A DNA stretch of 64,000 bases from Candidatus Saccharimonadota bacterium (GTDB lineage Bacteria > Patescibacteriota > Saccharimonadia > Saccharimonadales > JAXHNE01). The stretch is from the NCBI GenBank assembly GCA_034520885.1, contig JAXHNE010000007.1:118827-182826 (forward strand). Reading direction: 5' to 3'. The notes below the pieces were generated by a model, which saw nothing but the letters and a program-made list of their open reading frames with translations, had not been told where the DNA came from and did not search any database. Position 1 is the stretch's first letter; every line of letters starts with the position of its first letter. Positions 8,154 through 60,599 of the stretch are shown here, piece by piece. The position numbers and the translations under genes were made by a program.

Positions 8154-8182
8154 TTGACACAAACAAAGAAAAGTTGTAATAT
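8154..8182 (+). promoter_or_regulatory. sigma70-type promoter (TTGACA-17-TAATAT) for the 8190 cassette gene
   Basis: Consensus -35, 17-nt spacer, -10 ends 7 nt before ATG 8190. Confidence 0.6.
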
Positions 8183-8189
8183 GCAGCTT

Positions 8190-8945: not shown

Positions 8946-8996
8946 CACATTAACTTCGTACCCTCCCTCATTCCATAAAATTGTTTATTATAAAAA

Positions 8997-9053
8997 CGAA
9001 CTCCGAGTTAAATCGGAGTTAACTCGGAGTTAACTCGGAGTTCGGTAGTATTG
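8997..9053 (+). repeat. palindromic 11-mer element, copy 2 (one extra AACTCGGAGTT unit)
   Basis: cgAACTCCGAGTTAAATCGGAGTTAACTCGGAGTTAACTCGGAGTTcggtag read directly. Confidence 0.9.
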
Positions 9054-45844: not shown

Positions 45845-46372
45845 ATGCGTATCACCAGCGGAAAACTAAAAGGCCGGCAATTCGACGCCCCGGGCGGGCA
45901 TAAAACCCACCCCATGAGCGAACGGCTCAAAACCGCTTTGTTCAACGTACTTGGCGATATAGAGGGGTTGAATGTGCTGGACGCCTTTGCCGGCAGCGGG
46001 GCTTTGGGGTTCGAGGCGCTCAGCCGCGGCGCCCACTCCGCGCTACTTTTGGACAGTGATCGGCGGGCGGCCGCGACGATACGGAAAAATATCGAAACAC
46101 TGGGTCTTTCTGAGCAATGCAAAGTCACGCAAGCTCCCGTCCCGGCGTGGTCGGAGCGCAACCAAGAGCAACGGTTCAACTTAATCTTCGCCGATCCGCC
46201 GTTCAATGACGTGCAAGGGCCGAGCCTGGCGGTGCTGGCCGGCCATTTGCTACCGACCGGATTGTTGGTAGTTAATTATCCCAAAGGGCAAGAACCGGCC
46301 GAGCTCAGCGAACTGCCGTTACTCAAGCAAACGACCCACGCCGGCGCCCAGCTTTTGTTCTATAAACCCTAG
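45845..46372 (+). CDS. rsmD: 16S rRNA (guanine966-N2)-methyltransferase RsmD
   Basis: RITSGKLKGR, DAFAGSGALGFEALSRGA and FADPPF motifs. Confidence 0.85.
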   Translation: MRITSGKLKGRQFDAPGGHKTHPMSERLKTALFNVLGDIEGLNVLDAFAGSGALGFEALSRGAHSALLLDSDRRAAATIRKNIETLGLSEQCKVTQAPVPAWSERNQEQRFNLIFADPPFNDVQGPSLAVLAGHLLPTGLLVVNYPKGQEPAELSELPLLKQTTHAGAQLLFYKP

Positions 46373-46583: not shown

Positions 46584-46649
46584 AAACTTGACTACGGGAC
46601 ACGCTAGTCCAAAACCGTAAAAACCTTAAGATTCAAATCGCACTTTGAA

Positions 46650-46700
46650 CCGAACTCCGAGTTAAATCGGAGTTAACTCGGAGTTATGGTATGGTGTCGG
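46650..46700 (+). repeat. palindromic 11-mer element, copy 3
   Basis: ccgAACTCCGAGTTAAATCGGAGTTAACTCGGAGTTatggtatggtgtcgg, 67 nt after the tRNA-Leu. Confidence 0.9.
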
Positions 46701-46795
46701 TTTTTTGTTGGATAGTTTGCACAAAATTCAGGAGTGAAGGGGAATTCTCAGTATACGAACTAAAACAAGGGTCAGCATGTTAAAATACGGTTAAT

Positions 46796-49700
46796 ATGGC
46801 AAATTTGTTTGGTAAAAACAGGCTGAGTGAAAAAGCAGCCGAGATTAATACGGATGAGATTATCGATTTTATCGAGATCGTCAAAACATGGCACGCTGAT
46901 TGCCATGACGGTTCGCTCAAGAATGATAAAGAAACTTCTCGGGAACAGGAATACAATCAGTCCTTTTTCAAAAACATTCTCGGCTACAAAGAAAAACCAA
47001 CAGTCCCGTATAACTTTGAGCCAAAGGCGACAACAAAAACGGGCCACTTGCCAGATGCGGTCATCAGTTATACGGACAAGTCCAATGACATAGAAAATAT
47101 AGCTGCCGTTGTTGAGCTAAAAGGTGCATCGGTTGATCTAGATCGTCCGCAGCGTCGCGAGGGCAATATGAGCCCCGTACAGCAAGGTTTCAAATACAAA
47201 ACGCTATACCGTAACTGTCCATTCGTAGTCGTTAGTAACTTTTGGGAGTTTCGCTTGTATCACGACAACTTGCTCGACTACGAAGTCTGGACACTGGACG
47301 ATCTCGTTAACCCCGATGACGACTACATTCTGTTTAAAACTTGGTACACGCTACTAAAACGAGAAAATTTTACTGCCAAAAAAGGTGCCAGCAAGACAGA
47401 AGACCTACTGAGTGATATCCGCATTGAGCAGGAAGAAATAGGAAAAGATTTCTATAAAGTCTACAAAAAAGCAAGGCTTAGCTTACTCAGAGACATTATT
47501 GAGCAAAACCAAGTCAAACGAGGCGAAATAGACCTGGCTATAGAAAAAACGCAAAAAATCATTGATCGCATTGTTTTTGCTTGTTTTGCCGAAGACAGAG
47601 GATTGTTCCCGGATGATACTTTGCGCAGAGTTATAAAATCAGCGGATGAATCCGACTTTGATAGCTCGCTATGGTTTACGTTCAAGGCATTTTTTGAATC
47701 CGTTAATAGCGGTAGCGAGAAGTTAGGGATAGCGGACGGTTACAACGGCGGCCTGTTCGCACATGACGCAGAGCTAAATAACCTGAAGGTTGGCGATCGT
47801 CCTTTGCGCCAAATCGCAGAGCTTGGTGGGTACAATTTTGTTGAAGACCTGAGCGTTACCATTCTTGGTCATATTTTCGAACAGTCCATCAGTGACCTCG
47901 AAGAGATTAAAAACAAAGTCAATGAAAAACAAGGTCTAGACGCAATTCAGCAAAGTAGGCGCAAAAAAGACGGCATTTTCTACACGCCTGACTATATTGT
48001 CCGTTACATTGTCGACAACTCACTAGGGGCGTATCTACGTGAAGCAGAGGAACGGCTTAAAGACGAGTTCAGGCTTCACGGCGACATTAATGAAAAAAAT
48101 TATGAAAAACGCGAACGTCAAGCTTACGGTAAATACCAGGATTTCCTGCAAAACGTTAAAGTGTTAGATCCGGCGTGTGGTTCGGGCGCGTTCCTCGTGT
48201 ATGTGTTTGACTACCTGCTTGCAGAGAACAAGCGTGTGGCGAGCATTCTTGGCAATAGCCTGTTTAGCAGTGAAGATTATATAAAAGATATTTTACGCAA
48301 CAACATTTATGGCGTAGACCTTAATGAAGAATCAGTAGAGATAACTAAACTCTCACTATGGCTAAAATCCGCCCAAAAAGGTAAAAAACTTACCTCGTTG
48401 GACGACAACATAAAATGCGGTAACAGCCTTATAGACGACCCAGAAATCGCAAGCGACAAAGCTTTTGACTGGCAAAAAGAGTTTCCTAGTATTTTCGCAG
48501 ACGGCGGTTTTGATGTCGTTGTCGGGAATCCACCTTGGGTTTCACTAGGTGGAAAGCACGGTCAAAAAGTAAGTGACGATGAACTTAAATACTATATTGA
48601 GAAATACAACGGCAACACATACATGCCCAATCTGTTTGAATACTTCATAAATCTTGGCATCAATCTTTTGAGTACAGACGGTTATTTTGCGATGATTGTG
48701 CCAGATCGTTTTGGGATAAACGGTGTGTTTAACAAGTTACGTAAGCAAATATGGCAAAAGCATACCCTTGTTGAAGTCGTGTACAAGTGGGATTTTCCGT
48801 TTATCGTTACAGATACCATGACTTTTGTCATTAAAAAGCAAGTTGCGAACAAGCAAAAGGTGGCGATCAAGGCAAATCCAAAATCAGACTCAATATTCCT
48901 TACAAATAGCGAGATAGATGAAGATAGTTATGGGTTTAAGGCATTCAAATCAAAGCAGTCCAAAAAGCTTATTGATAAAATATTGGATGGCGGAGTTTCG
49001 TTATCGGAGGTTGCAAAAACCACTTCTGGTTTTGGTGGAAGATCAAAACTTATAACCATCAAAAGAGTGTCTCCAGAACAGAGAGAGATCTTGAAGGGTC
49101 AATCAATAGGACGTTATTTAGTCAAAGATAGGCTATATTTTGAATTTACTGACGAGAATGTAACCGGTAGAACGAGAGATGAAAATAAGTTAAGCGCAAG
49201 ACCAAAAGTACTACTCAGAAAAACTGGCTCGGAAATCATTGCCAGTTTCGACGACACTGGCGCATATCCAGAACAATCCCTTTACTTCCTATACTCATTT
49301 GCTGATAAAGTGCAGCCACTTTATATCTTGGCACTACTTAACTCAAGGTTAATAACTTGGCTTTTTAGAAATAACTACATAACTAACGCGGATAGTACTC
49401 CACAGCTAAAAAACATTGATTTAGATAAGTTTCCCATAGTAATTGCGGACAATAAAACGCAAGCGCAAATAGCAGAATTGGCGTCTGGCATAGTCGAAAA
49501 ATCAAAAACTTTGTACACGAACTCACAAAAACTAAATAGATTAGTGTCTGTGGAATTTTCTTTTGATAAGTTACCAGCCAAACTCAACAGATGGTGGACG
49601 CTTGACTTCGCAGACTTTGCAAATGCCTTAAAAGTTAAACTTTCGCTCCAGCAAAAAGACGAGCTTCTGCAACTCTTTGAAAAATACCGCACAGAATGTG

Positions 49701-49810
49701 CCGAACTCGACGCCCAAATCCAAAAAACCAATAACGAAATCGATCAACTAGTGTACAAACTTTACAACCTTACCCCCAAAGAGATACAGATTGTTGAAAC
49801 TGGAGCTTAA
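46796..49810 (+). CDS. type IIG/IIL restriction-modification enzyme (fused PD-ExK nuclease, N6-adenine methyltransferase and specificity domain; MmeI/Eco57I-like)
   Basis: 1004 aa; N-terminal LPDAV...VVELKG (PD-(D/E)xK), SAM motif VLDPACGSGAFLV, catalytic VVGNPPWV, C-terminal TaqI-like specificity region (LLNSRLITWLFRN). Confidence 0.85.
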   Translation: MANLFGKNRLSEKAAEINTDEIIDFIEIVKTWHADCHDGSLKNDKETSREQEYNQSFFKNILGYKEKPTVPYNFEPKATTKTGHLPDAVISYTDKSNDIENIAAVVELKGASVDLDRPQRREGNMSPVQQGFKYKTLYRNCPFVVVSNFWEFRLYHDNLLDYEVWTLDDLVNPDDDYILFKTWYTLLKRENFTAKKGASKTEDLLSDIRIEQEEIGKDFYKVYKKARLSLLRDIIEQNQVKRGEIDLAIEKTQKIIDRIVFACFAEDRGLFPDDTLRRVIKSADESDFDSSLWFTFKAFFESVNSGSEKLGIADGYNGGLFAHDAELNNLKVGDRPLRQIAELGGYNFVEDLSVTILGHIFEQSISDLEEIKNKVNEKQGLDAIQQSRRKKDGIFYTPDYIVRYIVDNSLGAYLREAEERLKDEFRLHGDINEKNYEKRERQAYGKYQDFLQNVKVLDPACGSGAFLVYVFDYLLAENKRVASILGNSLFSSEDYIKDILRNNIYGVDLNEESVEITKLSLWLKSAQKGKKLTSLDDNIKCGNSLIDDPEIASDKAFDWQKEFPSIFADGGFDVVVGNPPWVSLGGKHGQKVSDDELKYYIEKYNGNTYMPNLFEYFINLGINLLSTDGYFAMIVPDRFGINGVFNKLRKQIWQKHTLVEVVYKWDFPFIVTDTMTFVIKKQVANKQKVAIKANPKSDSIFLTNSEIDEDSYGFKAFKSKQSKKLIDKILDGGVSLSEVAKTTSGFGGRSKLITIKRVSPEQREILKGQSIGRYLVKDRLYFEFTDENVTGRTRDENKLSARPKVLLRKTGSEIIASFDDTGAYPEQSLYFLYSFADKVQPLYILALLNSRLITWLFRNNYITNADSTPQLKNIDLDKFPIVIADNKTQAQIAELASGIVEKSKTLYTNSQKLNRLVSVEFSFDKLPAKLNRWWTLDFADFANALKVKLSLQQKDELLQLFEKYRTECAELDAQIQKTNNEIDQLVYKLYNLTPKEIQIVETGA

Positions 49811-50661
49811 TGGACGGCTTATTTAACCATAGAGAGATAGCCGTAGGGCTGTGGTTAGCAGTACTTATAGTCTTTGCTGCTAGTAAAAAGGTAGTGCGCT
49901 CATCGTTTGTAGATGTTCTTAAAGCATTCTTCATGCCAAAAATAATCATACCGCTGTTACTGTCATTTGCGCCTATCTTGCTGGTAGTGTGGCTGTTGGC
50001 ATACTTCAATCTTTGGGACTTATCTGTACTTAAAGAGACAATCTACTGGGTTATTGGTACGGGAATAATAATGTTCGGTAAGTTTAATGATGTTAAAAAT
50101 GTAAAGACACTATACAAACAGACAGCAAAAGAAACTCTAGCGTTAGTGGTCTTGCTGGAGTTCGTTATTTGGCTTTACGTATTTCCTTTATGGGCTGAGT
50201 TGATATTAGTGCCGTTTGTAACCTTAATAGTACTACTGGCGACAGTTGCAAAGTATATGAAAACAGACGGTATAGGATTAACACGCAAAGTGCTAAATGG
50301 TATGCAAATATTCATTGGTCTACTTATACTACTATTCGCATTCATCGGCTTTACGAAAAACCCTGCATTGTTATTCACCTTTCAAAACCTAGAACTATTC
50401 TTATTGCCTATAATTTTGTCGTTGACCTACGCGCCGTCAGTGTACCTCATAGCGTTATACAGCAAGTATGAGTTGGTATTTAATCGCATCAATCACTATA
50501 TTTCGCCAGAAATCAAAGATAAACGGTCTATCAAGTTAGCTTGTATTAGACGCTGCGGTTTAAGCTTGCGCACAACTAGTGATATGACACGACACTTAGC
50601 GATTAACTTAACTAACGAGACAACAACCCCACAAGCCCTTAAATTGGTTCGTGATTTTTGA
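49810..50661 (+). CDS. hypothetical polytopic (~7 TM) membrane protein coupled to the RM gene
   Basis: 283 aa; start overlaps the RM stop (TAATG); same AT-rich composition; no known domain. Confidence 0.6.
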   Translation: MDGLFNHREIAVGLWLAVLIVFAASKKVVRSSFVDVLKAFFMPKIIIPLLLSFAPILLVVWLLAYFNLWDLSVLKETIYWVIGTGIIMFGKFNDVKNVKTLYKQTAKETLALVVLLEFVIWLYVFPLWAELILVPFVTLIVLLATVAKYMKTDGIGLTRKVLNGMQIFIGLLILLFAFIGFTKNPALLFTFQNLELFLLPIILSLTYAPSVYLIALYSKYELVFNRINHYISPEIKDKRSIKLACIRRCGLSLRTTSDMTRHLAINLTNETTTPQALKLVRDF

Positions 50662-50776
50662 CCCGAAACAAAAAGAAGCTTTGCTCGACACTAGCGCGTA
50701 GTGCGGCGCCTTTGCCATACCAGCGAAGCTCCAACACTTTTGTCTTTTATGACAGGCGAACCTTAAAAAACACATA

Positions 50777-50979
50777 GCTGAACCTTCAGGCGATAAAAGA
50801 AAAACTGCCCGGCTCAGACCAGTAAAAACATTAATTTACCAGCTTCTTCACCGAACTCCGAGTTAAATCGGAGTTAACTCGGAGTTCGGTGTCGTGTACG
50901 GATTTTCTTTAGTTGGTTTGCGCGAAAGTACAGAGTAGGGCGGGGTACCGCAATCCGGGGTTTAAAGCTCGCTACAATT
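50777..50979 (+). repeat. ~203-bp junction module L1 (contains palindromic element copy 4 at 50849-50891 and ends in TACAAT)
   Basis: Aligns along its whole length with 52831-53033, with scattered substitutions and one 1-nt indel. Confidence 0.9.
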
Positions 50980-51137
50980 ACCAAAAGCGGAGTCTAATAT
51001 AGTATGGGCGGATGCACTCATTTGACATTCGATCAGGACGGGTCTATTCTTACGGAAGGTGATATAAAATATGGGTCTTGCCCGGCAAAGTCTAAAAAAA
51101 GTCTCTCGTCAAAAAAACAACCAAAAGGGGTATCTCT

Positions 51138-52694
51138 ATGGCAAAGTCAAAAGCCAAAAGAACTAAAGCGTCACGTTCCAATAAAAAGAAAAAGCAATCA
51201 TTCGCCCAGAAATTCATGGGCCTCCCCAAAACGGTACTTTTCATTATTGCTTTTGGGCTGGTGGGAGTCGTTGGTCTTGTTATTGCAAGTGCCGGCCCGA
51301 ATTACAGTATGTCCCACAAACATTTAAATACGGAAAAATCAGTCAATGCCACAAAAGTTAAAGAAACCCGTGACAGCAAACGAAATGCAAAAGTAGTAGA
51401 AATAAAAAATAACTCAGAAGAGTCCGTTGCTAAAGCAACAATTTCACGCGACGTACCAGCAGGTACCTACGAAGTTTGTCTTATTGGTGTTGCTCAATCA
51501 GGTAGCCCAACGGGTACGTTCAGTGCGCGAGAATTTACTACCAGAACGGGTAATGATCTAGGGGTGACTACCTACACGGCAAAATCCGGAGGTGATTACG
51601 AAGAACTAGCATGTTTAAGTTTTGAGCATAAGGAAGGTGATAGCTCGCATTTGGCTCTATATGTCACTAACACGAATCCAGACACTTCGCTGAGGATAAG
51701 TGTCATCTCAGTAGAAGAGGTTGAAGGCAATGATACGGACGTGTCAATTGACGAGGAGCCAACTGATCCTCCGTCAACTGACCCCGGCGATTTGACTACC
51801 CTCTCGGGCTCACGGGCAATAAAGGCTTCATGCAATACGAAGGCACAGTACAATGGGACAAACCCACGCAATAACTTCCCAACGGATATTACGACCGGCC
51901 CGGAAGCCTCCGGCATCAACGAAGAGGCTTTACCAAGCTCAGGCCACTCCGGATCATGGACTATTTCACGAAACGGCGCAGTTGTTGACGGTGTTTTCCA
52001 TAACGGCAGTATTAATGTCAAAGCAGACAATGTAACAATAAAAAACAGTGTCATCTGCGGTAACTCAAGCATAATTGTTGACAACGATGGCAAAAACTTA
52101 CGTATTGAAAATTCAATAATTCGAGGCGAAGATAACGGTTCAGGTGACTGTGGTGCTGCTATAGCCCAAGGAAACTATAAAATGTACAACACAGAAGTAA
52201 CTTATTGTGCTGACGGTGGTAAGTTGAATGGTGTTGTCGAGATTTACAACTCATGGTTCCACGATTTTTTCACTAATCGCTACGGGAACGGAGGAGGTAC
52301 TCACAACGATACCTTACAGAAAAACAAAAACCCAAGTCTCGACCGGCTAATCGTTAAAGGCAATAGCATGTATCAAGACCCTTGTACCAGTAACCGACAC
52401 CTGCAAATGGGTGGACCGGATGAGTCAAGTCTCACGATTCCTTACTTAAGGTGGGAGGACAACTTTATGTATGGCATCAGAGGCTTCTATAAAGATGACA
52501 ACGTGCATGTAAGCGATGGTTTGATCTCTGGCAACACATTTGCAGGTAGTGCAACCAAAGGACCTTTCCCTACAGCTGGTTTATACAGCTGGGGTAATGG
52601 AACGCCAATACCGCGTAATGGAAATCTGTTCGAAAGTGGGCAAAATGCTGATGAAAATCCAAGTAGAAGTTCATATAACTGCACGAACATTTAA
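51138..52694 (+). CDS. membrane-anchored right-handed beta-helix (pectate-lyase/NosD-like repeat) surface protein
   Basis: Basic N-terminus + TM helix VLFIIAFGLVGVVGLVIA. C-terminal half has repeated N-x-(V/I)-x-I-x-N-(S/N) turns (VKADNVTIKNSVICGNSSIIVDNDGKNLRIENSIIRG). aagggg SD. Confidence 0.65.
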   Translation: MAKSKAKRTKASRSNKKKKQSFAQKFMGLPKTVLFIIAFGLVGVVGLVIASAGPNYSMSHKHLNTEKSVNATKVKETRDSKRNAKVVEIKNNSEESVAKATISRDVPAGTYEVCLIGVAQSGSPTGTFSAREFTTRTGNDLGVTTYTAKSGGDYEELACLSFEHKEGDSSHLALYVTNTNPDTSLRISVISVEEVEGNDTDVSIDEEPTDPPSTDPGDLTTLSGSRAIKASCNTKAQYNGTNPRNNFPTDITTGPEASGINEEALPSSGHSGSWTISRNGAVVDGVFHNGSINVKADNVTIKNSVICGNSSIIVDNDGKNLRIENSIIRGEDNGSGDCGAAIAQGNYKMYNTEVTYCADGGKLNGVVEIYNSWFHDFFTNRYGNGGGTHNDTLQKNKNPSLDRLIVKGNSMYQDPCTSNRHLQMGGPDESSLTIPYLRWEDNFMYGIRGFYKDDNVHVSDGLISGNTFAGSATKGPFPTAGLYSWGNGTPIPRNGNLFESGQNADENPSRSSYNCTNI

Positions 52695-52807
52695 ACTACA
52701 ATAAAGTTTTCATGAGTCGTTAATCTTGCATGGTTTACTGGGCTTAAGTAACCAAGAGTCATTAGAGATGCTTATATTGCGGCCAAAGTGCGTAAGCGTG
52801 AGTATAT

Positions 52808-52825
52808 GTTTTCCGTACGGAAAAC
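52808..52825. other. perfect 18-nt palindrome GTTTTCCGTACGGAAAAC after the beta-helix gene
   Basis: Read directly; terminator-like hairpin without a U-tract. Confidence 0.5.
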
Positions 52826-52830
52826 GCGTG

Positions 52831-53033
52831 GCTGAGCTTTCAGGCGATAAAAGAAAAACTGCCCGGCTCAGACCGGTAAAAACATCAATTTACGGACTTC
52901 TCTACGAACTCCGAGTTAAATCGGAGTTAACTCGGAGTTCGGTGTCGTGTACGGATTTTCTTTAGTTCGTTTGCGCGAAAGTGCAGAAGAGGGGCGGGGT
53001 ATTGCAATCCGGGGTTTAAAACCTGCTACAATT
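52831..53033 (+). repeat. ~203-bp junction module L2 (contains palindromic element copy 5 at 52905-52941 and ends in TACAAT)
   Basis: Direct repeat of L1; its TACAAT (53027-53032) sits 8 nt before ATG 53041. Confidence 0.9.
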
Positions 53034-53040
53034 TATGCAA

Positions 53041-53712
53041 ATGAGCGAAACACTTAGGAAAACGGAGAATCCCGAGCATTTCGATGTTCACCATGAAAAC
53101 GGTGAAGCTTTGATGTGCATGTCGAGCGAAGGCGAGTGCCGTGTCCTGGTAGAAATCATGTCGGGGTATACGCCCGAAGAACAGCAGCAGCTTACGGGCT
53201 CTACCACCGGCGCGCTTGAAGCCATTGATCGCTTTACGGACGGTAAAGCCGCGGATATTTTTACCGGTTTGCATATAAAAATTGGCGAGGACGTAACGGA
53301 AGGCGGAGCGAAAACAATCGCCGAGGAAAACCAAGTACTGCTCAGTGGTAGAAAAATGCTTTTGAGCATTGACGAAATGCGCCACGTAAGCGGAGCGTAC
53401 GGCAGCGAAGAGCTTACCGACTTTCCTGACGCACACCGACCTGGCGGCGCACTGGAATACACCCTGGTTCACGAAATAGGGCACGTTCTTGACGGCCAAA
53501 CCCAAGCCGGCGAACCGTACCACCGCGTTTCCGCCAAAGAAAGCCCTACGAAGTACGGACGCGAGTCCGACGAGTGGCACGACAATAAAAGCCACGAAAC
53601 GTTCGCGGAAGGCTTTGCGCACGCAGTTTACGACATGCCCATAAGCGAACCGCTGGAAACCGCCGTACGCGACACAATCAATACGAGGTTACAAGAAGTC
53701 ACCAAAACCTAA
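53041..53712 (+). CDS. HExxH zinc metallopeptidase-like protein (resembles the anthrax-lethal-factor / Pro-Pro-endopeptidase M34-type motif spacing)
   Basis: TLVHEIGHVLD followed ~45 aa later by HETFAEGFAHAV (third-ligand Glu context); no signal peptide; start moved from 53035 to 53041. Confidence 0.55.
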   Translation: MSETLRKTENPEHFDVHHENGEALMCMSSEGECRVLVEIMSGYTPEEQQQLTGSTTGALEAIDRFTDGKAADIFTGLHIKIGEDVTEGGAKTIAEENQVLLSGRKMLLSIDEMRHVSGAYGSEELTDFPDAHRPGGALEYTLVHEIGHVLDGQTQAGEPYHRVSAKESPTKYGRESDEWHDNKSHETFAEGFAHAVYDMPISEPLETAVRDTINTRLQEVTKT

Positions 53713-53755
53713 ACCAAATTTAAAATCTACGAGCGGAAAGAAATAACTAAAACTG

Positions 53756-54178
53756 CTAGAGTTCTTCTTTCCGCTCAGGCCACTCGTGATACGGATATAG
53801 TTCTCGTAACTTAACGGTTTTGTCGCTACTGATTATAACGTCAGCATCCAGACCATCCTCGAGTCTACTAAACATAAAGAGTCTACATGCACCGCACGGG
53901 GGCAAAACATAGACATCTTTTTGAGGATTATTATTCCAAACGGCGACAATCTTTTTTACTTTGTATTCTTTGTTAGTAAACATTTGAGCGATTGCGGTTC
54001 GTTCCGCGCAAGAGCCCACGCCAGAGCCATCGTCAACGCACGCCCCTTTGTAGATATTACCTTTGTCGGTGACTAGAGCCGACCCCACGTCGCCAATCCA
54101 GTCACCCTCAATCTCAATGGGATTAAGTACATCAACCGCTAGTTTTATCAGTTCTTTATTCGATATTTCATTATCCAT
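53756..54178 (-). CDS. cytidine / blasticidin-S deaminase-fold protein
   Basis: 140 aa; zinc motifs CAERTAI and PCGACR at the spacing typical of small tetrameric CDA/BSD enzymes. Confidence 0.8.
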   Translation of the reverse strand: MDNEISNKELIKLAVDVLNPIEIEGDWIGDVGSALVTDKGNIYKGACVDDGSGVGSCAERTAIAQMFTNKEYKVKKIVAVWNNNPQKDVYVLPPCGACRLFMFSRLEDGLDADVIISSDKTVKLRELYPYHEWPERKEEL

Positions 54179-54400
54179 ACTACAACTTTAACAGATTTAT
54201 CCATTTTACTCCGTTGTGTACGTTTCAGTAACTGCTACAGGGCAACACTCTAGGTCTTGTGAGATACCAGAGCTTAACCAAACTTAAAAGCCTACGTTAG
54301 TGAAGTCGGGCATGCTTCGGAGCCAAACCGCAGCTCTTTCTCCGTAACAGCAACCTCAAGCACTCAGGGTATATTTAGCTTTTCTTGTTATAGTAGGGAA

Positions 54401-54766
54401 GTGAACTTAAACGAAACCGATTTACGTGAACTGGAAAAGTTAGAGGAATCGCTTTGGGAGCGGAAAACGCGATTTGACAATGACTACATGAGAAGCGTTT
54501 TGGCCGATGACTTTTTGGAGTTTGGGCGTTCCGGGAAGGTTTACGACCTTGAAGAGTCGTTGTCGGCCCCCGACCAAGAAATCAAAGCAAAGCTACCTCT
54601 TAAAGACTTTTCAGTGCACCAAATTGACGAGACCGTAGCCTTGGTAACCTACGTGAGCCAAGTAGAGTATGACAGTTTAGAAGTTAGCAACCGAAGCTCT
54701 TTGTGGCAGAACACCGGCGAGGGCTGGAAACTCAAGTTTCATCAGGGCACTCCAGTAAATCCATAG
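54401..54766 (+). CDS. NTF2-like (DUF4440/SnoaL-type) protein
   Basis: 121 aa; LADDFLEFGRSGKVY...WKLKFHQGT pattern typical of DUF4440. Confidence 0.7.
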   Translation: MNLNETDLRELEKLEESLWERKTRFDNDYMRSVLADDFLEFGRSGKVYDLEESLSAPDQEIKAKLPLKDFSVHQIDETVALVTYVSQVEYDSLEVSNRSSLWQNTGEGWKLKFHQGTPVNP

Positions 54767-54831
54767 CCGTGTCTAGCTTTTGATCCCAAACAAATGACAA
54801 CTTCTCGCAGGGCATCCCCCTAAAAACAACC

Positions 54832-54870
54832 CACCGAACTCCGAGTTAAATCGGAGTTATGGCTTGTCGT
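54832..54870 (+). repeat. palindromic 11-mer element, copy 6 (short form)
   Basis: caccgAACTCCGAgttaaaTCGGAGTTatggcttgtcg, between convergent genes. Confidence 0.85.
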
Positions 54871-54896
54871 CAGGTCTGTTCGTTGGTTTTTGGGGT

Positions 54897-55583
54897 TCAG
54901 CCACTACTTAAGTGCTCGTGAATAATCTGCCAGTTGCCATCAATTCTTTGTAGAACATTAGTGCCACGACCTGTGTACACTGGTTGTTTGTTATTTACTT
55001 TGCCGTCTAAAGTAAAATCATATACGCATGCGGCGGTATCGTAGTCTCGCGCGAGCCACACAATGTTGTTTATCTTGTATATTCCATCCTGAATATTTTG
55101 GTAGATGCTCTCAAAGGCTTGCCGGATTGATTTGATACCGTGGTAGGTTCCATTCGTAAACCAAAAGACCGCGTCTTTGGCAATCATAGGGGCAACGTTC
55201 TCAAAATCACGTGAGTTGACCGCTTTCTCGTACGCTTGAAGAAGCGTGGTCAGTTCATTGTGAACCTCGGCGTCGCCGTTTGTAGTTATGGGTTCACCCT
55301 TTTTAATTGTTCGAGCGGCAACATCAGCCATTCTTTCTAAGTCCTGGTACGTATTGGCTTTATCTTCAGCGTGATTTACATAACGGCTTGGGCCTCGAAA
55401 CAAAAAGCGCTTGCCCCAAAATGAATGCACATAGGCGTGTTGGCTTTTCGGGAGCAGCTTAAAGTCTGCTTTGGTAATTTCGGTGAGCTCGTATGGCACT
55501 ACTACCTCGTCCTTTTTGAAGTCACGATTAGCTTGGACGCCTTTGCCTCGAAAACTGCCATTTCCGATACTTACGTTATCCAT
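54897..55583 (-). CDS. SET-domain / NTF2-like fusion protein
   Basis: N-terminal ~105 aa has SET features (GKGVQANRDFKKDEVVVPY, YVNHAEDKANT, IKKGEPIT); C-terminal ~115 aa is SnoaL/DUF4440-like (VFWFTNGTYHG...GNWQIIHEHLS). Confidence 0.6.
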   Translation of the reverse strand: MDNVSIGNGSFRGKGVQANRDFKKDEVVVPYELTEITKADFKLLPKSQHAYVHSFWGKRFLFRGPSRYVNHAEDKANTYQDLERMADVAARTIKKGEPITTNGDAEVHNELTTLLQAYEKAVNSRDFENVAPMIAKDAVFWFTNGTYHGIKSIRQAFESIYQNIQDGIYKINNIVWLARDYDTAACVYDFTLDGKVNNKQPVYTGRGTNVLQRIDGNWQIIHEHLSSG

Positions 55584-55676
55584 GCATAGAATTTTAACAG
55601 ATTTTACCTGTTAAAATTCTATGCTAGCGAGGCCTGGATTTATTTGAGCTGAACGAACTTTATCAAAAAGTATTGC

Positions 55677-55720
55677 ACCGAACTCCGAGTTAAATCGGAG
55701 TTATGGTATGGTGTCGGTGG
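55677..55720 (+). repeat. palindromic 11-mer element, copy 7 (short form)
   Basis: caccgAACTCCGAgttaaaTCGGAGTTatggtatggtgtcggtgg; its 3' flank is identical to copy 3. Confidence 0.85.
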
Positions 55721-55755
55721 GTTGGGGTATAAAAACCTTATGCTAAAACGAAAGG

Positions 55756-55947
55756 ATGAATCATATGGGCGCTCGAAAAATGGGTGAGCAACACATTCGC
55801 AGCCTCACGCAAAATAAAACGGGGACGTATCAGGTATCTTTGCCGATACGCGTGATACGGGAAATGGGCTGGCGTGAACGGCAAAAGCTCACCGTAACCC
55901 GCCAAGGTAAAAAACTAATAGTCCAAGACTGGAACCCCCAAACCTAG
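55756..55947 (+). CDS. AbrB/MazE/SpoVT-type DNA-binding protein (antitoxin-like)
   Basis: 63 aa; VSLPIRVIREMGWRERQKLTVTRQGKKLIVQDW swapped-hairpin pattern; the true start may be ATG 55765 (better SD spacing). Confidence 0.6.
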   Translation: MNHMGARKMGEQHIRSLTQNKTGTYQVSLPIRVIREMGWRERQKLTVTRQGKKLIVQDWNPQT

Positions 55948-55982
55948 TAGTTAGTAGATGGTATTTAGTACTTACTTGTTAA
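55948..55982. repeat. heptad-periodic tract (tagttag tagatgg tatttag tacttac ttgttaa)
   Basis: Directly after the AbrB-like stop. Confidence 0.7.
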
Positions 55983-56055
55983 GGGTGCTGTGAAGGTTCT
56001 ACGAAGGTTTTCGCTATTGCTTTTGTTATATAAATATCCGGTGTAATATTTATGC

Positions 56056-56649
56056 ATGTCAGCTGAAACGTTAAGATCTTTCGAATCAAGCGGAGAAGAG
56101 GTCTTTGATGAGCTAATGGTGGACTACTCTGAAGCAATGCATGATTATCAGAGAGCATTGCGCGGCTACATCATGCTTAGATATGAAGAAAATGTCTCGG
56201 CGCATACAACAAGACTCGAGGATATCGACTTAAACACACCCTATGCTCAGCAACCGGATCAGTTGGCAAGGGACGCACTAGCTGTGTGGATTCACACTGA
56301 AAAACTGAGTATGGCGCAAAGGGACTTGCATTCTATGGAAAGAGAGTGGGATCAGGAGCATAGAGATGATATTAGCGGCCTGCTTGGCAGAAAGGTCAAG
56401 GTAGCTGCAATCGATCCAGACAGGAGCTCTATCGGCACTAGCAAACTTAATGAATCTGGTGAGTACGATGGTCTTGGCCAGTGGCATGATACTGTTGCTG
56501 GTAGGCTTACGGGTCTTAATCTTGACCTCGACACGGGTGGTGGTGTAGTTGTAAAGAAACCTTTTAGCAAAAAACACTACAGTGCCTATCCATTGCTAAG
56601 TCCCAATACTGCATGTGAGCCACTGTATAAAATAGAGTTCTTGGATTAG
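56056..56649 (+). CDS. hypothetical protein
   Basis: 197-aa ORF, acidic N-terminal half; no recognisable motif. Confidence 0.45.
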   Translation: MSAETLRSFESSGEEVFDELMVDYSEAMHDYQRALRGYIMLRYEENVSAHTTRLEDIDLNTPYAQQPDQLARDALAVWIHTEKLSMAQRDLHSMEREWDQEHRDDISGLLGRKVKVAAIDPDRSSIGTSKLNESGEYDGLGQWHDTVAGRLTGLNLDLDTGGGVVVKKPFSKKHYSAYPLLSPNTACEPLYKIEFLD

Positions 56650-56807
56650 ATAAAAGTAAAATATGGCTGCTCACCAGGCTTCGTGAAGCTCGCGCCGAAA
56701 TTTAAAGTAAACAGGCAACTTCATGCCTTAACTGATATCCCAAAGTGCTGTCTTGGAAGCAATAAAAAACACTATTGCTTTGAACGGATTAACAACGGGT
56801 GTAAAAA

Positions 56808-57305
56808 TCAACTTCGGACGGAATCCTTGGCTTTAGCTTCACTGCTGCGTGCCCACTCGCGGTCTGTTCTTACGCTTTGCCAGTACAGAACTATACCCAT
56901 TCCAATCGTTCCCAACCCTGCCACTTGAGAAACTCTTCCAATCACATTAGAAGTGGTTGCGCTGCTTTCTTGCGCCTCAAGATCGTTCTCAGCAAATTCC
57001 AAGGCCCGAGCATGCCCAACAGATAGCTCAATGTCCTCACCTGCAGAAATAACGACGTCTCGACCTTCGTAGTCAGCTGTAAAGTGCCGGTCAGAGTCTT
57101 CAATAATTGCATTCCCAAGCACTAACATACCTAGGTCTTTTTGTTGTTGTTCGGTCAGCTCCGAATACTCTGCCACGTCGTCTCTCAACTCACGCGCATC
57201 TGTCACATATTCTGGGGTACCTCCACCTGCATTCTCACCGCCAAAATATACCATAAACCCGCCTATACCAACTACGCAAGCCGCAAGTTTTGATTCTATA
57301 GCCAT
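56808..57305 (-). CDS. hypothetical protein with N- and C-terminal TM helices
   Basis: 165-aa ORF; hydrophobic segments AACVVGIGGFMVYFG and VAGLGTIGMGIVLYW. Confidence 0.45.
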   Translation of the reverse strand: MAIESKLAACVVGIGGFMVYFGGENAGGGTPEYVTDARELRDDVAEYSELTEQQQKDLGMLVLGNAIIEDSDRHFTADYEGRDVVISAGEDIELSVGHARALEFAENDLEAQESSATTSNVIGRVSQVAGLGTIGMGIVLYWQSVRTDREWARSSEAKAKDSVRS

Positions 57306-57359
57306 ATTTACTCCTTATGTGAAGTAATTATACAGCATTTTCTGGCGAAAACTTGTTTC

Positions 57360-57407
57360 CAAGGAGGCTCCTTGGAAATACTAATAGTCCAAGACTGGGA
57401 AGCGTAG
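57360..57407 (+). pseudogene. remnant of a second AbrB-like gene 3' end (...QGGSLEILIVQDWEA*)
   Basis: The 18-nt ctaatagtccaagactgg is identical to 55915-55932; no upstream start or body. Confidence 0.45.
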
Positions 57408-57423
57408 CGGGCGCTACGCGCAT

Positions 57424-57486
57424 AGATGATAGATGATAGGTGATGGATGGAAGTTGGTAGTTGGAAGATAGTAGTTAGTAGATCGT
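57424..57486. repeat. heptad-periodic tract (~9 units: atagatg atagatg ataggtg atggatg gaagttg gtagttg gaagata gtagtta gtagatc)
   Basis: Read directly; its last 23 nt repeat 55945-55967. Confidence 0.8.
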
Positions 57487-57686
57487 ATTTAAAAAGTCGG
57501 GATTTAGTATTTTTTGTTTCTGAGGTGCCACCCAAGGGAAGTAAGTTATTGCTTAGTTCAAGTTCGACAGTTAGCCTAAAAAGGGGTAGAATATGCTGGC
57601 AATGACACACAATACTGACCTAAACTTGCATCTGCATATGTCGCCTCGTAGAGCCGGCTAGCTTTGCTTTTGTCTTTGATAAACAG

Positions 57687-57712
57687 CGCCCCGGCTCTCC
57701 GGGGCGTTTTTA
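57687..57712 (+). terminator. rho-independent terminator (CGCCCCGG-ctct-CCGGGGCG + TTTTT) just upstream of the hisS promoter
   Basis: 8-bp GC stem, tetraloop, T5 tract. Confidence 0.75.
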
Positions 57713-57743
57713 TTTATCAGAAACATACTATAATGGAGGAAAT

Positions 57744-59051
57744 ATGAGTTTATCCAAGCAACCAATTAAAGGCGCGCGGGATTTTTATCCGGAGGACATG
57801 CGCCAGCGCGAGTACATCTTTGCGGTATGGAAAGAGGTGTGCGAGCTATTCGGCTACGAAGCTTACGACGCGCCGATTTTGGAACCCACCGACTTGTATC
57901 TGACCAAAGGCAGCGAAGAAATCATTAACGAACAGACTTACAGTTTTAAAGATCGTGGTGATCGCAACCTTACCGTGCGCACCGAAATGACGCCCAGTGT
58001 CAGCCGTATGGTGGCGGCGCGGCGCCAAGAGTTGGCGTATCCGCTGCGGCTGTATTCCATTCCGCAGTGTTGGCGCTACGAGCGCATGCAACGCGGCCGC
58101 GGGCGGGAATTCTACCAGCTGAACGTGGATCTCTTTGGCGACGAATCGCTGAACGCCGAGGTAGAGATGATTGAAATTTCCGATACGGTTTTGCGTAAAT
58201 TCGGTGCCAAGCGTTCCATGTACGAAATCAAACTTAATAGCCGAAAACTGATCGATGGCTTTTTAACCGATGAACTCAAACTGGATAAAACCCAAGCCGA
58301 CACCATCCGCCGGCTGATTGACCGCATGCATAAAATGGCCACGCCCGCCTTTACCGCTCAGGTGGAAAACACCTTGAGTCCCACGCAACGGGACGATGGC
58401 GCGCTGGACAAGCTTTTGGCATTTTTAAAGGCCGATTCGCTTGAGCATTTGCCCGGCAGCGTGCGCTCGCATCAATCGGTGGATGACCTAAAACGGCTTA
58501 TGCGGGATCTGGAGGGTCTCAACATCACTAACGCGGTGTTCGACCCCACGCTGATGCGTGGATTCGATTACTACACCGACATTGCTTTTGAAGTGTTCGA
58601 CACCGATCCGCAAAACAATCGCTCCATGTTCGGCGGCGGCCGTTACGACGGGCTGGTGGGGGCGTTCGGTGTAGATCCGATACCGACGATCGGCTTTGCC
58701 ATGGGCGACATCACTTTGCAGAACTTTTTACGCTCGCATGGGCTTGCCAAGGAAATTCCTTCCACCACGGACGTGTACTTGTTTTCCGTGGGCGATACGG
58801 TTGATGAAACCATGGGCGTAGCCCGCGAACTGCGCGAAATGGGCGTGGGCGTAGCAACCGACGTGACCGATAGAAAACCGGCCAAAAAGATCAAAAACGC
58901 CGTAAAAATGGGCGTGCGTTACGCCTTGATCGTTGGCGAGGACGAGGTGCAAAACCGGCAGTACACCCTAAAAAACCTAAAATCCGGCACCGAAGGCAAG
59001 TACAGCACGCAACGAATCGTCAGTATCGTGGAAGATTACCGTGCGGGTTAA
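57744..59051 (+). CDS. hisS: histidine--tRNA ligase
   Basis: 435 aa; class II motifs (RYERMQRGRGREFYQ, GGGRYDGL); TATAAT and ggagg SD upstream. Confidence 0.95.
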   Translation: MSLSKQPIKGARDFYPEDMRQREYIFAVWKEVCELFGYEAYDAPILEPTDLYLTKGSEEIINEQTYSFKDRGDRNLTVRTEMTPSVSRMVAARRQELAYPLRLYSIPQCWRYERMQRGRGREFYQLNVDLFGDESLNAEVEMIEISDTVLRKFGAKRSMYEIKLNSRKLIDGFLTDELKLDKTQADTIRRLIDRMHKMATPAFTAQVENTLSPTQRDDGALDKLLAFLKADSLEHLPGSVRSHQSVDDLKRLMRDLEGLNITNAVFDPTLMRGFDYYTDIAFEVFDTDPQNNRSMFGGGRYDGLVGAFGVDPIPTIGFAMGDITLQNFLRSHGLAKEIPSTTDVYLFSVGDTVDETMGVARELREMGVGVATDVTDRKPAKKIKNAVKMGVRYALIVGEDEVQNRQYTLKNLKSGTEGKYSTQRIVSIVEDYRAG

Positions 59052-59082
59052 GTTTTTTGCGGAAGGCGGAGCTCCCGAGCTT

Positions 59083-59538
59083 ATGAAAGCCGCAAAAGAA
59101 TATGCTGCTATTTGGGGGCAAGATGGTCGGAAAATCATTAGCACGTTAGAGCGTATCACCGGGCTTACATTTACCGACCAAGAAATTGAGGCGACCGTTT
59201 TTGAAGGCATAAGCCAGTCGCACCCTTTGAAGCTACGGGCGAGCTACGAAATGGATACAAAGCGCAGCACCCTGGTTCACGAGCTCACCCATCGGCTGTG
59301 TACAAAAGAAAACACAAAGTTCGATGATCCGAATGGTGATCAGAATACCGAGGTACACAAAATCATATTTTTAGTTTTATATGATGCACTTACGGAACTT
59401 TACGGGGAGGAAATGGCGCAAAAAGAGGTCGAAACGACTAGCGGCTATTCCCAAAGTTATCGTGACGCGTGGGATTTTGTTCTTGGAATGAGTAAGCAAG
59501 AGCGGGCGCGAGTCTTTAAGAGCCTGCGCATAGCTTAG
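59083..59538 (+). CDS. hypothetical protein with an HExxH motif
   Basis: ORF 59041..59538; ATG 59083 avoids overlap with hisS; STLVHELTHRL. Confidence 0.45.
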   Translation: MKAAKEYAAIWGQDGRKIISTLERITGLTFTDQEIEATVFEGISQSHPLKLRASYEMDTKRSTLVHELTHRLCTKENTKFDDPNGDQNTEVHKIIFLVLYDALTELYGEEMAQKEVETTSGYSQSYRDAWDFVLGMSKQERARVFKSLRIA

Positions 59539-59897
59539 TTGGTAGACTTTAGTGTTCGGCCGTGTTTATCGTATTGGGTTGGTGGGCCGAATGGGATCTC
59601 ATCCACCTCTTTAAACGGGCAGTCGTCGTCGGTGTGAAAATCAGAAAAATGCAAAACTGAACTTCTAATTCCGCTTAGGGCTACCAGATATGGCTCGACT
59701 TGTTCTGGGGTAACGTGCATATCAAGTTCAATATTGTAAGCTCGGCCTGGTAGTGTAAAACCCTCGCCGTGGCAAGTCGGCTGCACGCTGATTGTATCGT
59801 CGTTGACCGCTAAACGGGCGAGCAGAAACGTGGCAGGTTTATGAAAGTCGGTTGTAACTGCATCGATATGTAGATACTTAATCTCCATGGTATGCAT
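59535..59897 (-). CDS. hypothetical protein
   Basis: 120-aa ORF; start may be the second ATG (59888). Confidence 0.4.
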   Translation of the reverse strand: MHTMEIKYLHIDAVTTDFHKPATFLLARLAVNDDTISVQPTCHGEGFTLPGRAYNIELDMHVTPEQVEPYLVALSGIRSSVLHFSDFHTDDDCPFKEVDEIPFGPPTQYDKHGRTLKSTN

Positions 59898-59960
59898 AGT
59901 ATACAGTACCTACAGATACAAGTTGCAAGAAATTGTAAAAACTGGTGTAATACACGTATT

Positions 59961-60599
59961 GTGGAACGAAAATTAGTATTCTTAAGTGGAGTAGGTAGCT
60001 CAAAATCATCTGGCGAGAATGTTGTTAATGCTGCTGTTAGTGAGGGGTGGGTTGATGATGGCGATGCTTATACCCCTCGGCAAGCCAAAAAAATGTCACC
60101 CGATAAACTTCGCCAGCGTATTCAGATTGGCGGCGTGCTGTGGACTCACTCGGCCGGTATTTTATACGTGCCTAGTGAAGTTAAAGTGCACGAAGCGGCA
60201 ATTTTTGCTGGCCCAGAAAAGCGTAGCGTGCCTCGGTTACTTAAAGGTTCAATGCAAAAAACCTGGGATCATATTTTTGCGGAAACCGACTATTCACGCC
60301 GTGAGCATCTTCGAGTTGCGGCGCACACCACTGCTTTTGCCTTGCGTGATGTGCTGAGTTTGCCCGAAATTGCCAAGTTCTCTACAACTGAGCACATTGC
60401 GGCAGCAACCCACGTAAATCCAGAAAATACCCGTGTTTTTAGTATGTCAGAAGACAGGTTCTTCCCTGGCAGCCACAACATTGCTGCCCCGGTTTTACGC
60501 AACCTTGGCTGTCATGTTCAGGAAATTGAGGGTGGTCACGACGATATGATGGTTGACCCTTCTGCGGTTCTTCAAGTTGCTGGCCTTGCCCAAAAGTAG
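59961..60599 (+). CDS. alpha/beta-hydrolase-like protein
   Basis: ORF 59892..60599; GTG 59961 lies ~8 nt after TTGCAA-N-TAATAC; KLVFLSGVGSS, WTHSAG elbow-like and GGHDDMM motifs. Confidence 0.45.
   Translation: MERKLVFLSGVGSSKSSGENVVNAAVSEGWVDDGDAYTPRQAKKMSPDKLRQRIQIGGVLWTHSAGILYVPSEVKVHEAAIFAGPEKRSVPRLLKGSMQKTWDHIFAETDYSRREHLRVAAHTTAFALRDVLSLPEIAKFSTTEHIAAATHVNPENTRVFSMSEDRFFPGSHNIAAPVLRNLGCHVQEIEGGHDDMMVDPSAVLQVAGLAQK

Follow-up and report, generated by a model that had tools for sequence, protein, structure and literature searches.

The 64,000-nt stretch of DNA analysed here (the window; positions 118,827 to 182,826 of contig JAXHNE010000007.1 in the Candidatus Saccharimonadota assembly GCA_034520885.1) carries a tRNA-Leu(TAG) gene which is separated from hisS by a long, GC-poor run of accessory genes. 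The evidence largely establishes this segment as the local filling of a chromosomal gene-exchange hotspot that lies 3' of tRNA-Leu(TAG) and is conserved across the Saccharimonadia, and the filling is very probably a horizontally assembled accessory island that is not self-mobile. We draw these conclusions because the flanking genes are kept among relatives, the contents of the gap are unrelated from one genome to another, and the island proteins are unmatched at the site. In kind, this is an ordinary hotspot or genomic island and not a new mechanism.

To place the segment in its phylogenetic context, 80 related loci with hisS were fetched from GTDB species representatives, almost all of them Saccharibacteria/Saccharimonadales, and 53 of these hold both rsmD and hisS. 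The relatives are metagenome-assembled genomes (MAGs) and gaps longer than 10 kb are censored. The nearest relative, L002, has 79% identity in hisS and the others 64% or less. The gene order methyltransferase-recG-285aa-rsmD-tRNA-Leu(TAG)...hisS-tig-clpP is kept in 53/53 loci, each with exactly one tRNA-Leu(TAG) between rsmD and hisS, and the same tRNA is the only one predicted in the window by ARAGORN and Rfam. The rsmD-hisS spacing ranges from 131 to 9249 nt (median 2307 nt; >1 kb in 45/53), and nearly all of this variation lies between the tRNA 3' end and hisS, where 5 to 8032 nt are found (median 1644 nt; >1 kb in 37/53). The 11,160 nt in the window is the largest value measured, and the nearest relative has 246 nt. 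The control, made up of neighbouring core junctions, gave medians of 16, 17, 61, 361 and 485 nt; between hisS and tig the median is 485 nt and the maximum 3515 nt. The distance from rsmD to the tRNA takes one of two forms, 22-200 nt or about 800-1000 nt, and a recurrent 240-aa gene usually occupies the longer one.

The segment had been predicted to be accessory, and the synteny comparison bears this out, as the flanks are present in 53/53 relatives and tblastn of the island proteins against the relatives' loci gave no match in any of them. The relatives encode 160 open reading frames (ORFs) in the gap, most of which cluster with no other gap ORF, and their domains are miscellaneous (SPFH, SpoU, DinB, patatin, LD-carboxypeptidase, NUDIX, ParE, PIN, CdiA_C). 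None of the 24 PHROG families matched by the 138 gap ORFs scanned is a recombinase, and an integrase is not among the 25 of 65 Pfam families listed for them. Three loci (L011, L042 and L070) have no tRNA within 10 kb of hisS and carry type IV secretion genes upstream of it instead of rsmD and tRNA-Leu. The genes found there encode VirB2-like pilins, VirB4/TraG-like ATPases, a coupling protein, PrgI and a sortase, and in one of the three an IS200-like Y1 transposase also lies upstream of hisS.

The change in composition at the site is abrupt. The original prediction described the sequence after tRNA-Leu(TAG) as visibly AT-richer, and the computed values agree: the GC content of 46584-57743 is 0.435 against 0.516 for the remaining window, and upstream windows of 11.16 kb never fall below 0.499. 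Bins of 200 nt show a fall from 0.54 to 0.40 at 46600 and a return at about 57800, the switch lying 20-100 nt past the tRNA 3' end. Codon usage follows the same division, with a mean G+C content at third codon positions (GC3) of 0.459 in island genes and 0.579 in backbone genes (Mann-Whitney p=0.0007); recG, rsmD and hisS, the core genes on the flanks, have values of 0.65-0.68. Within the island GC3 is uneven (0.40-0.58), most genes having 0.40-0.47, the gene for the HExxH protein 0.58 and the DUF4440 gene 0.56. Such heterogeneity makes the island a mosaic rather than one insert. Gene orientation is mixed, as had been proposed, with six genes on the plus and three on the minus strand compared with 38 and seven in the backbone.

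On the right, the true edge of the island falls slightly short of hisS, and homology to L002 upstream of this gene resumes only at about 57693-57700, within a strong bidirectional terminator. About 50 nt of the hisS promoter beyond this edge are identical even to this 79% relative. A motif common to the window and the L002 spacer, TAGTTAGTAGAT, was set aside since it does not extend into a real alignment. The longest non-coding stretches in the island are about 440-480 nt, one of them (~440 nt) between the gene for the 165-aa protein and the terminator, where the ORF at 57308-57610 looks spurious. The interval 57560-57718, just 5' of the hisS promoter, contains a promoter-like TCGACA-17-TAGAAT, a possible 22-codon ORF and the strong terminator, and could be a small transcript; its Rfam match is weak and sub-threshold (ncS54, E=0.08). 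At the gathering and E-value thresholds Rfam reported only the tRNA, with no riboswitch or small RNA in the island or in the junction module described below.

No mobility gene was recognised in the island ORFs scanned, as Pfam, NCBIfam and PADLOC searches found no integrase, recombinase or transposase. Nor does the window contain a tRNA-derived repeat, whether sought as exact matches of at least 12 nt, by blastn-short or with three mismatches allowed, using its own tRNA or the relatives' variant; the best Smith-Waterman score was 22 against a shuffle mean of 21.6. The reported absence of an integrase, a transposase and a duplicated tRNA 3' end thus withstands both domain scans and sensitive repeat searches.

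The genes of the island and the other features discussed are listed in Table 1. The labels originally given to the restriction-modification (RM) enzyme, the protein with seven transmembrane segments (7-TM), the beta-helix, deaminase and NTF2 proteins, the SET fusion and the AbrB-like protein are all supported by domains, hydropathy or homologues. That of a peptidase goes too far; the 225-aa protein has the HEIGH motif and searches of Pfam, NCBIfam and the PDB gave no match.

Table 1. Coordinates of the island, its genes and junction elements, its flanks and related features (positions in the window unless a contig is named).
Feature	Position	Strand	Basis and remarks
Two element copies outside the island	8029..9046	+	Flank one 283-aa gene (8094-8945)
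rsmD	45845..46372	+	Pfam Cons_hypoth95 8.5e-41; left conserved flank
tRNA-Leu(TAG)	46499-46583	+	ARAGORN and Rfam; left anchor of variable segment
Accessory island, variable segment of hotspot	46584..57700		Low GC; homologues lacking in 80 related loci
Junction module copy 1 (E1; palindrome core 46653-46685)	46649..46726	+	5' of RM gene; hairpin -26 kcal/mol
Type IIG (MmeI-like) RM enzyme, 1004 aa	46796..49810	+	Pfam, PADLOC, PD...ELK motif
283-aa protein, 7 hydrophobic segments (7-TM)	49810..50661	+	Hydropathy; no family match
Direct repeat A (E2; palindrome 50849-50891)	50767..50979	+	Ends in TACAAT -10-like box; 18-bp stem, -31 kcal/mol
518-aa membrane-anchored protein, C-terminal right-handed beta-helix domain	51138..52694	+	Hydropathy, homologues
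Direct repeat B (E3; palindrome 52905-52944)	52821..53033	+	Ends 1 nt before ATG of HExxH gene
225-aa protein, HEIGH (HExxH) motif	53035..53712	+	Motif; GC3 0.58, near backbone
Cytidine-deaminase-like protein, 140 aa	53756..54178	-	PF00383 28 bits (cut-off 25)
NTF2-like DUF4440 protein, 121 aa	54401..54766	+	PF14534 2.6e-11
E4, short form of palindromic element	54832..54862	+	31 nt identical to 55676-55706
SET domain fused to NTF2/SnoaL domain, 228 aa	54897..55583	-	PF00856 32.5 bits, SnoaL_3, DUF4440
E5, short form of palindromic element	55676..55718	+	40-75 nt 5' of AbrB-like gene
AbrB/MazE/SpoVT-type small DNA-binding protein, 63 aa	55756..55947	+	PF04014 4.1e-5, 23.9 bits
197-aa (+) and 165-aa (-) genes	56056..57305		No family match; bracketed by duplicated AbrB 3' end
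Strong bidirectional terminator at right edge	57685..57718	+	10-bp stem with 8 GC pairs, T-run; followed by conserved hisS promoter and ribosome-binding site
hisS	57744..59051	+	Pfam tRNA-synt_His 2e-45; right conserved flank
Second, minor variable stretch, hisS-tig	59041..60599		Three ORFs, GC3 0.40-0.49, no family match
Integrase and tRNA-copy regions in IMG/VR contigs	L101:2215-3493, L103:8872-10151, L104:2168-3446, L105:1541-2819, L102:1378-2503

The largest gene encodes an RM enzyme that combines a nuclease (PD...ELK motif), a spacer, an N6A methyltransferase and a specificity domain in one polypeptide. It matches the Pfam families MmeI_N (weakly), MmeI_hel, MmeI_Mtase, Eco57I and TaqI_C and the PADLOC model REase_MTase_IIG (4.5e-116). 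This is the architecture of MmeI-family type IIG/IIL enzymes, in which a single polypeptide of about 1000 aa combines a PD-(D/E)XK motif at the N terminus, a helical spacer, an N6-adenine methyltransferase of the gamma class and a specificity domain like that of TaqI, although the match to MmeI itself is only distant (PDB 5hr4, 9.7e-5). By homology, the enzyme would form one barrier against phage or other foreign DNA. PADLOC matched no other island protein among the nine more that were scanned, so the content in defence functions claimed for the island comes down to this one system, and a reading of the segment as a defence island was rejected. The start of the 7-TM gene overlaps the RM stop codon (ATGA).

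The 518-aa protein has an N-terminal transmembrane segment (residues 26-44), and its homologues share 46-55% identity over the C-terminal 56%, several of them with PF13229 Beta_helix; from these relationships it is a candidate surface or polysaccharide-acting protein. The 140-aa protein matches NCBIfam cytidine deaminase models at 1e-13, under their cut-offs, and is predicted to be a nucleoside-salvage-type enzyme, and the remaining small proteins probably include regulators. The fusion of SET and NTF2/SnoaL domains is rare: a search of 1.84 billion representative proteins gave 467 matches at E<=1e-3, and of the best 150 about a dozen span both domains. The AbrB-like protein scores slightly below the Pfam cut-off and is named AbrB/MazE/SpoVT by NCBI. 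The 7-TM, 197-aa and 165-aa proteins have no family match in Pfam, PADLOC or NCBIfam, and no paralogy was found among the island proteins. Judged by these homologies, the island would be strain-level accessory equipment of an epibiotic bacterium with a reduced genome.

Relatives of individual island genes occur elsewhere. The closest homologues of the RM enzyme have 80, 71, 68 and 67% identity, and several are named Saccharibacteria. All lie in unrelated contexts, their neighbours being ribonucleotide reductase, the members of a defence cluster (DruA, a ThiF/Bil-type system), or HARE-HTH and DUF2779 together with a serine recombinase, and the 7-TM partner was not found beside any of the RM homologues. 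The 80% homologue (contig L099) comes from an organism with a GC content of 0.42 and has unrelated flanks, its DNA similarity extending only from 20 nt 5' of the ATG to just before the stop codon. The ends of this contig (L099:1-30 and L099:4480-4509) are inverted copies of a different GC-rich palindrome, GTCCGCCTGCCGAAAACGGCAGAGGCGTCG. Since the travelling gene is flanked by a different palindrome there, the palindromes are features of the host lineage and not part of the gene that moved, and related organisms seem to have dispersed palindromes of their own at cassette borders. Homologues of the beta-helix protein are found in a Saccharibacteria-like MAG and in a contig with a GC content of 0.70 from outside the candidate phyla radiation (CPR).

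At 90% identity the island proteins are all singletons among 15 billion proteins. Other records of the rsmD and RM sequences all came from this sample, on contigs that end at the tRNA or at the palindromes, and an exact look-up of hisS and the 197-aa protein gave no record. Phage and plasmid collections searched by blastn with 50.6-57.8 kb gave no match, and viral relatives of the 518-aa and SET proteins were not found. Residues 192-328 of hisS have a counterpart with 93% identity in a 169-aa protein (MDZ7785504.1, P0160), which diverges after that. This protein is encoded on a 43.7-kb NCBI contig attributed to Candidatus Saccharibacteria that may belong to the same MAG as the window, as far as the accession series indicates, and it could be a hisS pseudogene fragment or come from a co-binned sister strain.

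The island DNA is divided by an imperfect palindrome built from the 11-mer AACTCSGAGTT, which occurs 12 times in the window against 0.03 expected. The element occupies seven sites, all intergenic, of which five (46651, 50852, 52905, 54837 and 55681) are in the island and two (8029 and 8997) outside. The five island copies had been recognised earlier; the element is, however, not exclusive to the island. It is enriched there (P=0.0025 by length, 0.037 by non-coding length). The copies fold into stems of 8-18 bp with free energies of -19 to -39 kcal/mol and z-scores down to -7.4. At the junctions they form part of modules with hairpins of 16-18 bp, which in the long form carry a -10-like box directly 5' of the following gene. 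The E1 module is 83% identical over 79 nt to those at 50850 and 52905.

It is largely established that the island consists of at least five cassettes, each headed by a copy of the element: E1 precedes the RM and 7-TM genes, E2 the gene for the 518-aa beta-helix protein, E3 the HExxH, deaminase (minus strand) and DUF4440 genes, E4 the SET-NTF2 gene (minus strand) and E5 the AbrB-like gene and those for the 197-aa and 165-aa proteins, the last on the minus strand. Direct repeats enclose single cassettes. Repeats A and B are 214 nt long and 89% identical, bracket the 518-aa gene and place TACAAT one to a few bases 5' of the next gene; a two-sequence fold gave no covariation. E4 and E5 are identical direct repeats of 31 nt around the SET gene. 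The 3' end of the AbrB-like gene is also duplicated, the last 23 nt of the gene (55910-55932) and 23 nt just past it (55945-55967) recurring with 96% identity at 57376-57398 and 57469-57491, on the far side of the 197-aa and 165-aa genes.

The two copies outside the island are 97-100% identical to island copies over 35-39 nt. The gene they enclose lies just 3' of uvrB, has backbone GC and looks like a one-gene cassette between two direct copies of the element. Its product has the same length as the 7-TM protein by coincidence only, and paralogy of the two was ruled out. Since it also stands in DNA with the GC content of the backbone, the element is a trait of the recipient lineage. It was not found in the 80 relatives' loci.

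In metagenomes, the exact core of the element is present on four short contigs with a GC content of 0.39-0.42, in unrelated contexts. One of them (L086) encodes an AbrB homologue with 64% identity and has the element in the same upstream position, with 22 of 24 core bases conserved, while the AbrB coding sequence is about 68% identical. The arrangement hints, no more, that the AbrB-like protein might bind the palindrome. The link comes from this one contig, because a homologue search with the AbrB-like protein returned only itself. On another of these contigs (L085:1250-1548) a WhiB-like small protein adjoins the element, with a large repeat-rich surface protein opposite. The same stem, AACTCCGA...TCGGAGTT, is found in two hairpins of a 165-kb IMG/VR phage contig (L094:7336-7357 and L095:3475-3496) which has a GC content of 0.31-0.33, encodes DNA polymerase A, PNKP and ThyX, and shows no similarity to the window beyond this 22-mer. 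We discounted it as a relative of the element, as it is a plain, uninformative terminator-type hairpin, probably convergent.

In the clade, the tRNA itself is a genuine integration target. The search that was negative in the window found an exact duplicate of the 3' part of tRNA-Leu(TAG), 14-43 nt long and 60-565 nt 3' of the gene, in 13 relatives (L002, L006, L007, L010, L027, L036, L044, L050, L066, L071, L072 and L073, and in inverted orientation L031; for example L002:9902-9922, L036:5867-5892 and L073:6906-6948). Six of the duplicates reach the CCA end. The starting point of the duplicates is the anticodon loop in two loci and the T-arm in most of the rest, both being classic sublocations for integrase crossover. 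The L073 duplicate carries the acceptor sequence of another lineage. There is no integrase near any of these attachment (att)-like duplicates, and the segments that they bound are tiny, with the variable genes beyond them.

Five IMG/VR viral contigs of 17-37 kb contain a 21-mer of the tRNA 3' part, which ends a tRNA 3' copy of about 58 nt, and about 275 nt from this copy encode a 315-aa tyrosine integrase (PF00589 3.6e-26), with a CHAP-domain (lysin) gene nearby. These contigs are candidate temperate phages of Saccharibacteria that would integrate at tRNA-Leu(TAG). The duplicates and the viral contigs together mean that integrase-bearing elements which target this tRNA exist in the clade. Two of the contigs (L101 and L104) also have a complete inverted tRNA-Leu(TAG) 1.7 kb away, for which we have no explanation. 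The 3' end of the window tRNA has no exact match in viral contigs and differs from that of all relatives in the T-arm and acceptor, and the island proteins have no match in the integrase-bearing contigs.

The mechanism that we favour is stepwise recombination, to which we give a chance of about a half or slightly less. DNA taken up by a naturally competent lineage would recombine through the conserved anchors, namely the tRNA gene on one side and the hisS promoter and gene on the other, and the repeated junction modules would serve as further sites within the island. Several independent acquisitions, rather than the arrival of one element, would account for the present contents, and the direct repeats of 214, 31 and 23 nt on either side of single cassettes would be the product of single-crossover or unequal recombination at the modules. 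Integrases targeting tRNA-Leu, active in the clade, may first have opened the hotspot, with nothing in the present island recognisably derived from them. Recombination at repeats is favoured because direct repeats of the junction module surround single cassettes. Saccharibacteria take up DNA by natural competence and integrate it through homology arms of about 1 kb (PMC10633639), and 27% of horizontal gene transfer hotspots lack any mobility protein, such hotspots being commoner in transformable species (PMC5635113).

Several points weigh against this account. There is no conspecific genome to compare for recombination tracts in rsmD or hisS or for presence/absence polymorphism, and the island proteins are singletons at 90%. 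At the divergence of the nearest relative (79% in hisS) classical homologous recombination would be inefficient unless the donors were much closer. The island begins exactly at the 3' end of a tRNA that is a proven attB in the clade, as an integrase origin predicts. The repeats around cassettes could also have arisen by local duplication of promoter regions or by insertion of elements resembling miniature inverted-repeat transposable elements, the cassettes being static, and low GC3 is not proof of transfer, as the non-island stretches 281-3284 and 21831-22226 are equally low.

The original prediction had offered old, decayed integration or homologous or element-mediated exchange as origins; both stay alive, the module repeats favouring recombination and the att scars of the clade showing that the tRNA has been targeted. 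If decayed and stacked phage-like or integrative elements built the island, tyrosine integrases brought them in at the tRNA-Leu(TAG) 3' end, newer elements pushed older ones towards hisS, and the integrases, att repeats and structural genes were later deleted to leave the cargo. Such a history would fit an island that begins at the first base past the tRNA, the 13 relatives with exact duplicates and the five viral contigs with their integrases. It fits less well with a window in which no tRNA-derived repeat of either variant and no integrase or phage-like domain was found, and in which non-coding stretches of at most ~480 nt leave no room for a large pseudogene. The tRNA 3' end lacks an exact viral match, the integrase contigs lack the island proteins, and among relatives the att-bounded segments measure only 60-565 nt with the variable genes beyond them, and none of the 138 gap ORFs scanned is a recombinase. 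We therefore regard decay, the main rival, as rather unlikely, while noting that it and stepwise recombination are not mutually exclusive. A more active part for the palindromes is also conceivable, either as targets of an integron-like or REP/RAYT-like recombinase whose gene lies elsewhere, or as operators through which the AbrB-like protein co-ordinates the cassettes. A module stands at every cassette boundary, three single-gene units lie between two direct copies, the element is enriched in the island, its core is better conserved than the AbrB coding sequence in L086, and one relative has an IS200-like Y1 transposase 5' of hisS. The different palindrome beside the closest RM homologue nevertheless marks these hairpins as a host-lineage feature; the island ORFs scanned include no recombinase, paired integron core sites are absent, the cassettes have their own promoters and mixed orientation, the AbrB link has the support of two genomes only, and the hairpins may be mere terminators. 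An active role of this kind appears improbable. In its strongest form, for which we see equally little likelihood, the modules would be working parts of an integrase-free cassette system in which cassettes travel with their 5' module and the AbrB-like protein controls the array. Were this true, cassettes would be gained, lost and rearranged behind tRNA-Leu as modules recombine with each other, with the AbrB-like protein bound to the palindrome.

Two further explanations do without transfer into this genome. Lineage-specific native genes under weak expression or selection might have drifted towards AT, and GC3 is indeed equally low at 281-3284 (aldolase and PfkB kinases), 21831-22226 and 59041-60599, while two island genes have backbone-like values of 0.56-0.58. 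Drift does not predict composition steps within 200 nt at both edges, however, and the island genes are at this site in 0/53 relatives, the nearest of which has a spacer of 246 nt; the site is variable in the whole clade, and the 80% RM homologue resides in a 0.42-GC organism with unrelated flanks. We hold a native origin to be very unlikely. The segment might instead be an artefact, the tRNA-Leu-hisS interval of a lower-GC relative having been spliced in during assembly at the conserved tRNA and hisS promoter. Both edges are indeed sequences conserved between species (the tRNA and ~50 nt 5' of hisS), an independent assembly of short reads from this sample spans neither junction, its contigs ending before the tRNA and at the palindromes, and the 93%-identical hisS fragment lies on another Candidatus Saccharibacteria contig which, from its accession series, may be part of the same MAG. 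A chimera would nevertheless need two in-register mis-joins, the lineage-specific element is present both in the island and in backbone-GC DNA (8029, 8997) and absent from the 80 relatives' loci, and the window tRNA is unlike that of all relatives in T-arm and acceptor. We give this explanation hardly any credence.

The locus works like two kinds of system already described. Horizontal gene transfer hotspots without mobility proteins (Oliveira et al. 2017, PMC5635113) likewise have the same core flanks in many genomes, high turnover and unrelated contents, enrichment in defence and accessory genes, a tRNA flank, no integrase or transposase and a naturally transformable host; they were defined among strains of one species, whereas here genomes from different species and genera within an uncultivated phylum are compared. 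The minimal mobile elements of Neisseria (Saunders & Snyder 2002; PMC3787668) also consist of alternative cassettes between fixed conserved genes without a mobility gene, for which exchange by transformation and homologous recombination has been proposed, with short dispersed repeats at the junctions. They were defined among closest relatives with one alternative unit, and the present locus has several cassettes and distant relatives. The features shared with both are the same flanks with different intervening genes and the lack of an integrase or transposase in the variable segment.

With tRNA-associated genomic islands, the segment shares its position at a tRNA 3' end, atypical composition, accessory cargo and absence from relatives, together with att-type tRNA duplicates in relatives and the existence of matching integrase-bearing elements. 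It differs in two defining features, as the island in the window has neither an integrase nor an att repeat. Integrase-less derivatives of such islands are known as remnants like cis-mobilisable elements (CIMEs). Integrons and clusters of attC sites lacking an integrase (CALINs) are similar in having short cassettes in series, separated by imperfect palindromes and with no adjacent integrase. The island, however, has no intI, and its palindromes lack paired R''/R' core sites; CACCGAACTCCGAGTTAAATCGGAGTTAACTCGGAGTTCGGTG, inspected by eye, has one GTTAAAT and no inverse ATTTAAC partner. Its cassettes also have their own promoters (-10-like boxes) and run in both directions, with the palindrome 5' of genes and also at ordinary intergenic sites. 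The element itself resembles repetitive extragenic palindromes and bacterial interspersed mosaic elements (REP/BIME) or Correia-type palindromes, being an intergenic, lineage-specific imperfect palindrome of 23-45 nt built from an 11-mer unit, with a stable hairpin and sometimes a promoter-like sequence, at which short-read assemblies break. A REP-associated tyrosine transposase (RAYT-type, Y1) such as accompanies REP/BIME was not found in the part of the window ORFs that was scanned.

Other parts of the window show a similar composition. Among the three ORFs of the stretch between hisS and tig, one has a HELTH motif, and one has a homologue in L002 and L020 only, which places hisS between two variable stretches. 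The interval 281-3284, encoding a class I fructose-bisphosphate aldolase and two PfkB-family kinases, has GC3 as low as the island (0.40-0.42) and may be another acquired block. A 53-nt direct repeat with 94% identity (25637-25689 and 25762-25814, spaced 125 nt) lies in DNA of locally lower GC with no clear gene.

The genomes of Saccharibacteria and other CPR bacteria are tiny and their gene order is highly conserved, and gene gain in them is poorly documented. The interval between tRNA-Leu(TAG) and hisS is one defined place of gene turnover across the group. Two kinds of evidence come together there: integrase targeting in relatives, to which the att scars and the matching integrase-bearing viral contigs testify, and, in this genome, a mosaic free of integrases. 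The site is a place to seek strain-specific defence and host-interaction genes, and a natural candidate landing pad for the engineering of the now-transformable Saccharibacteria.

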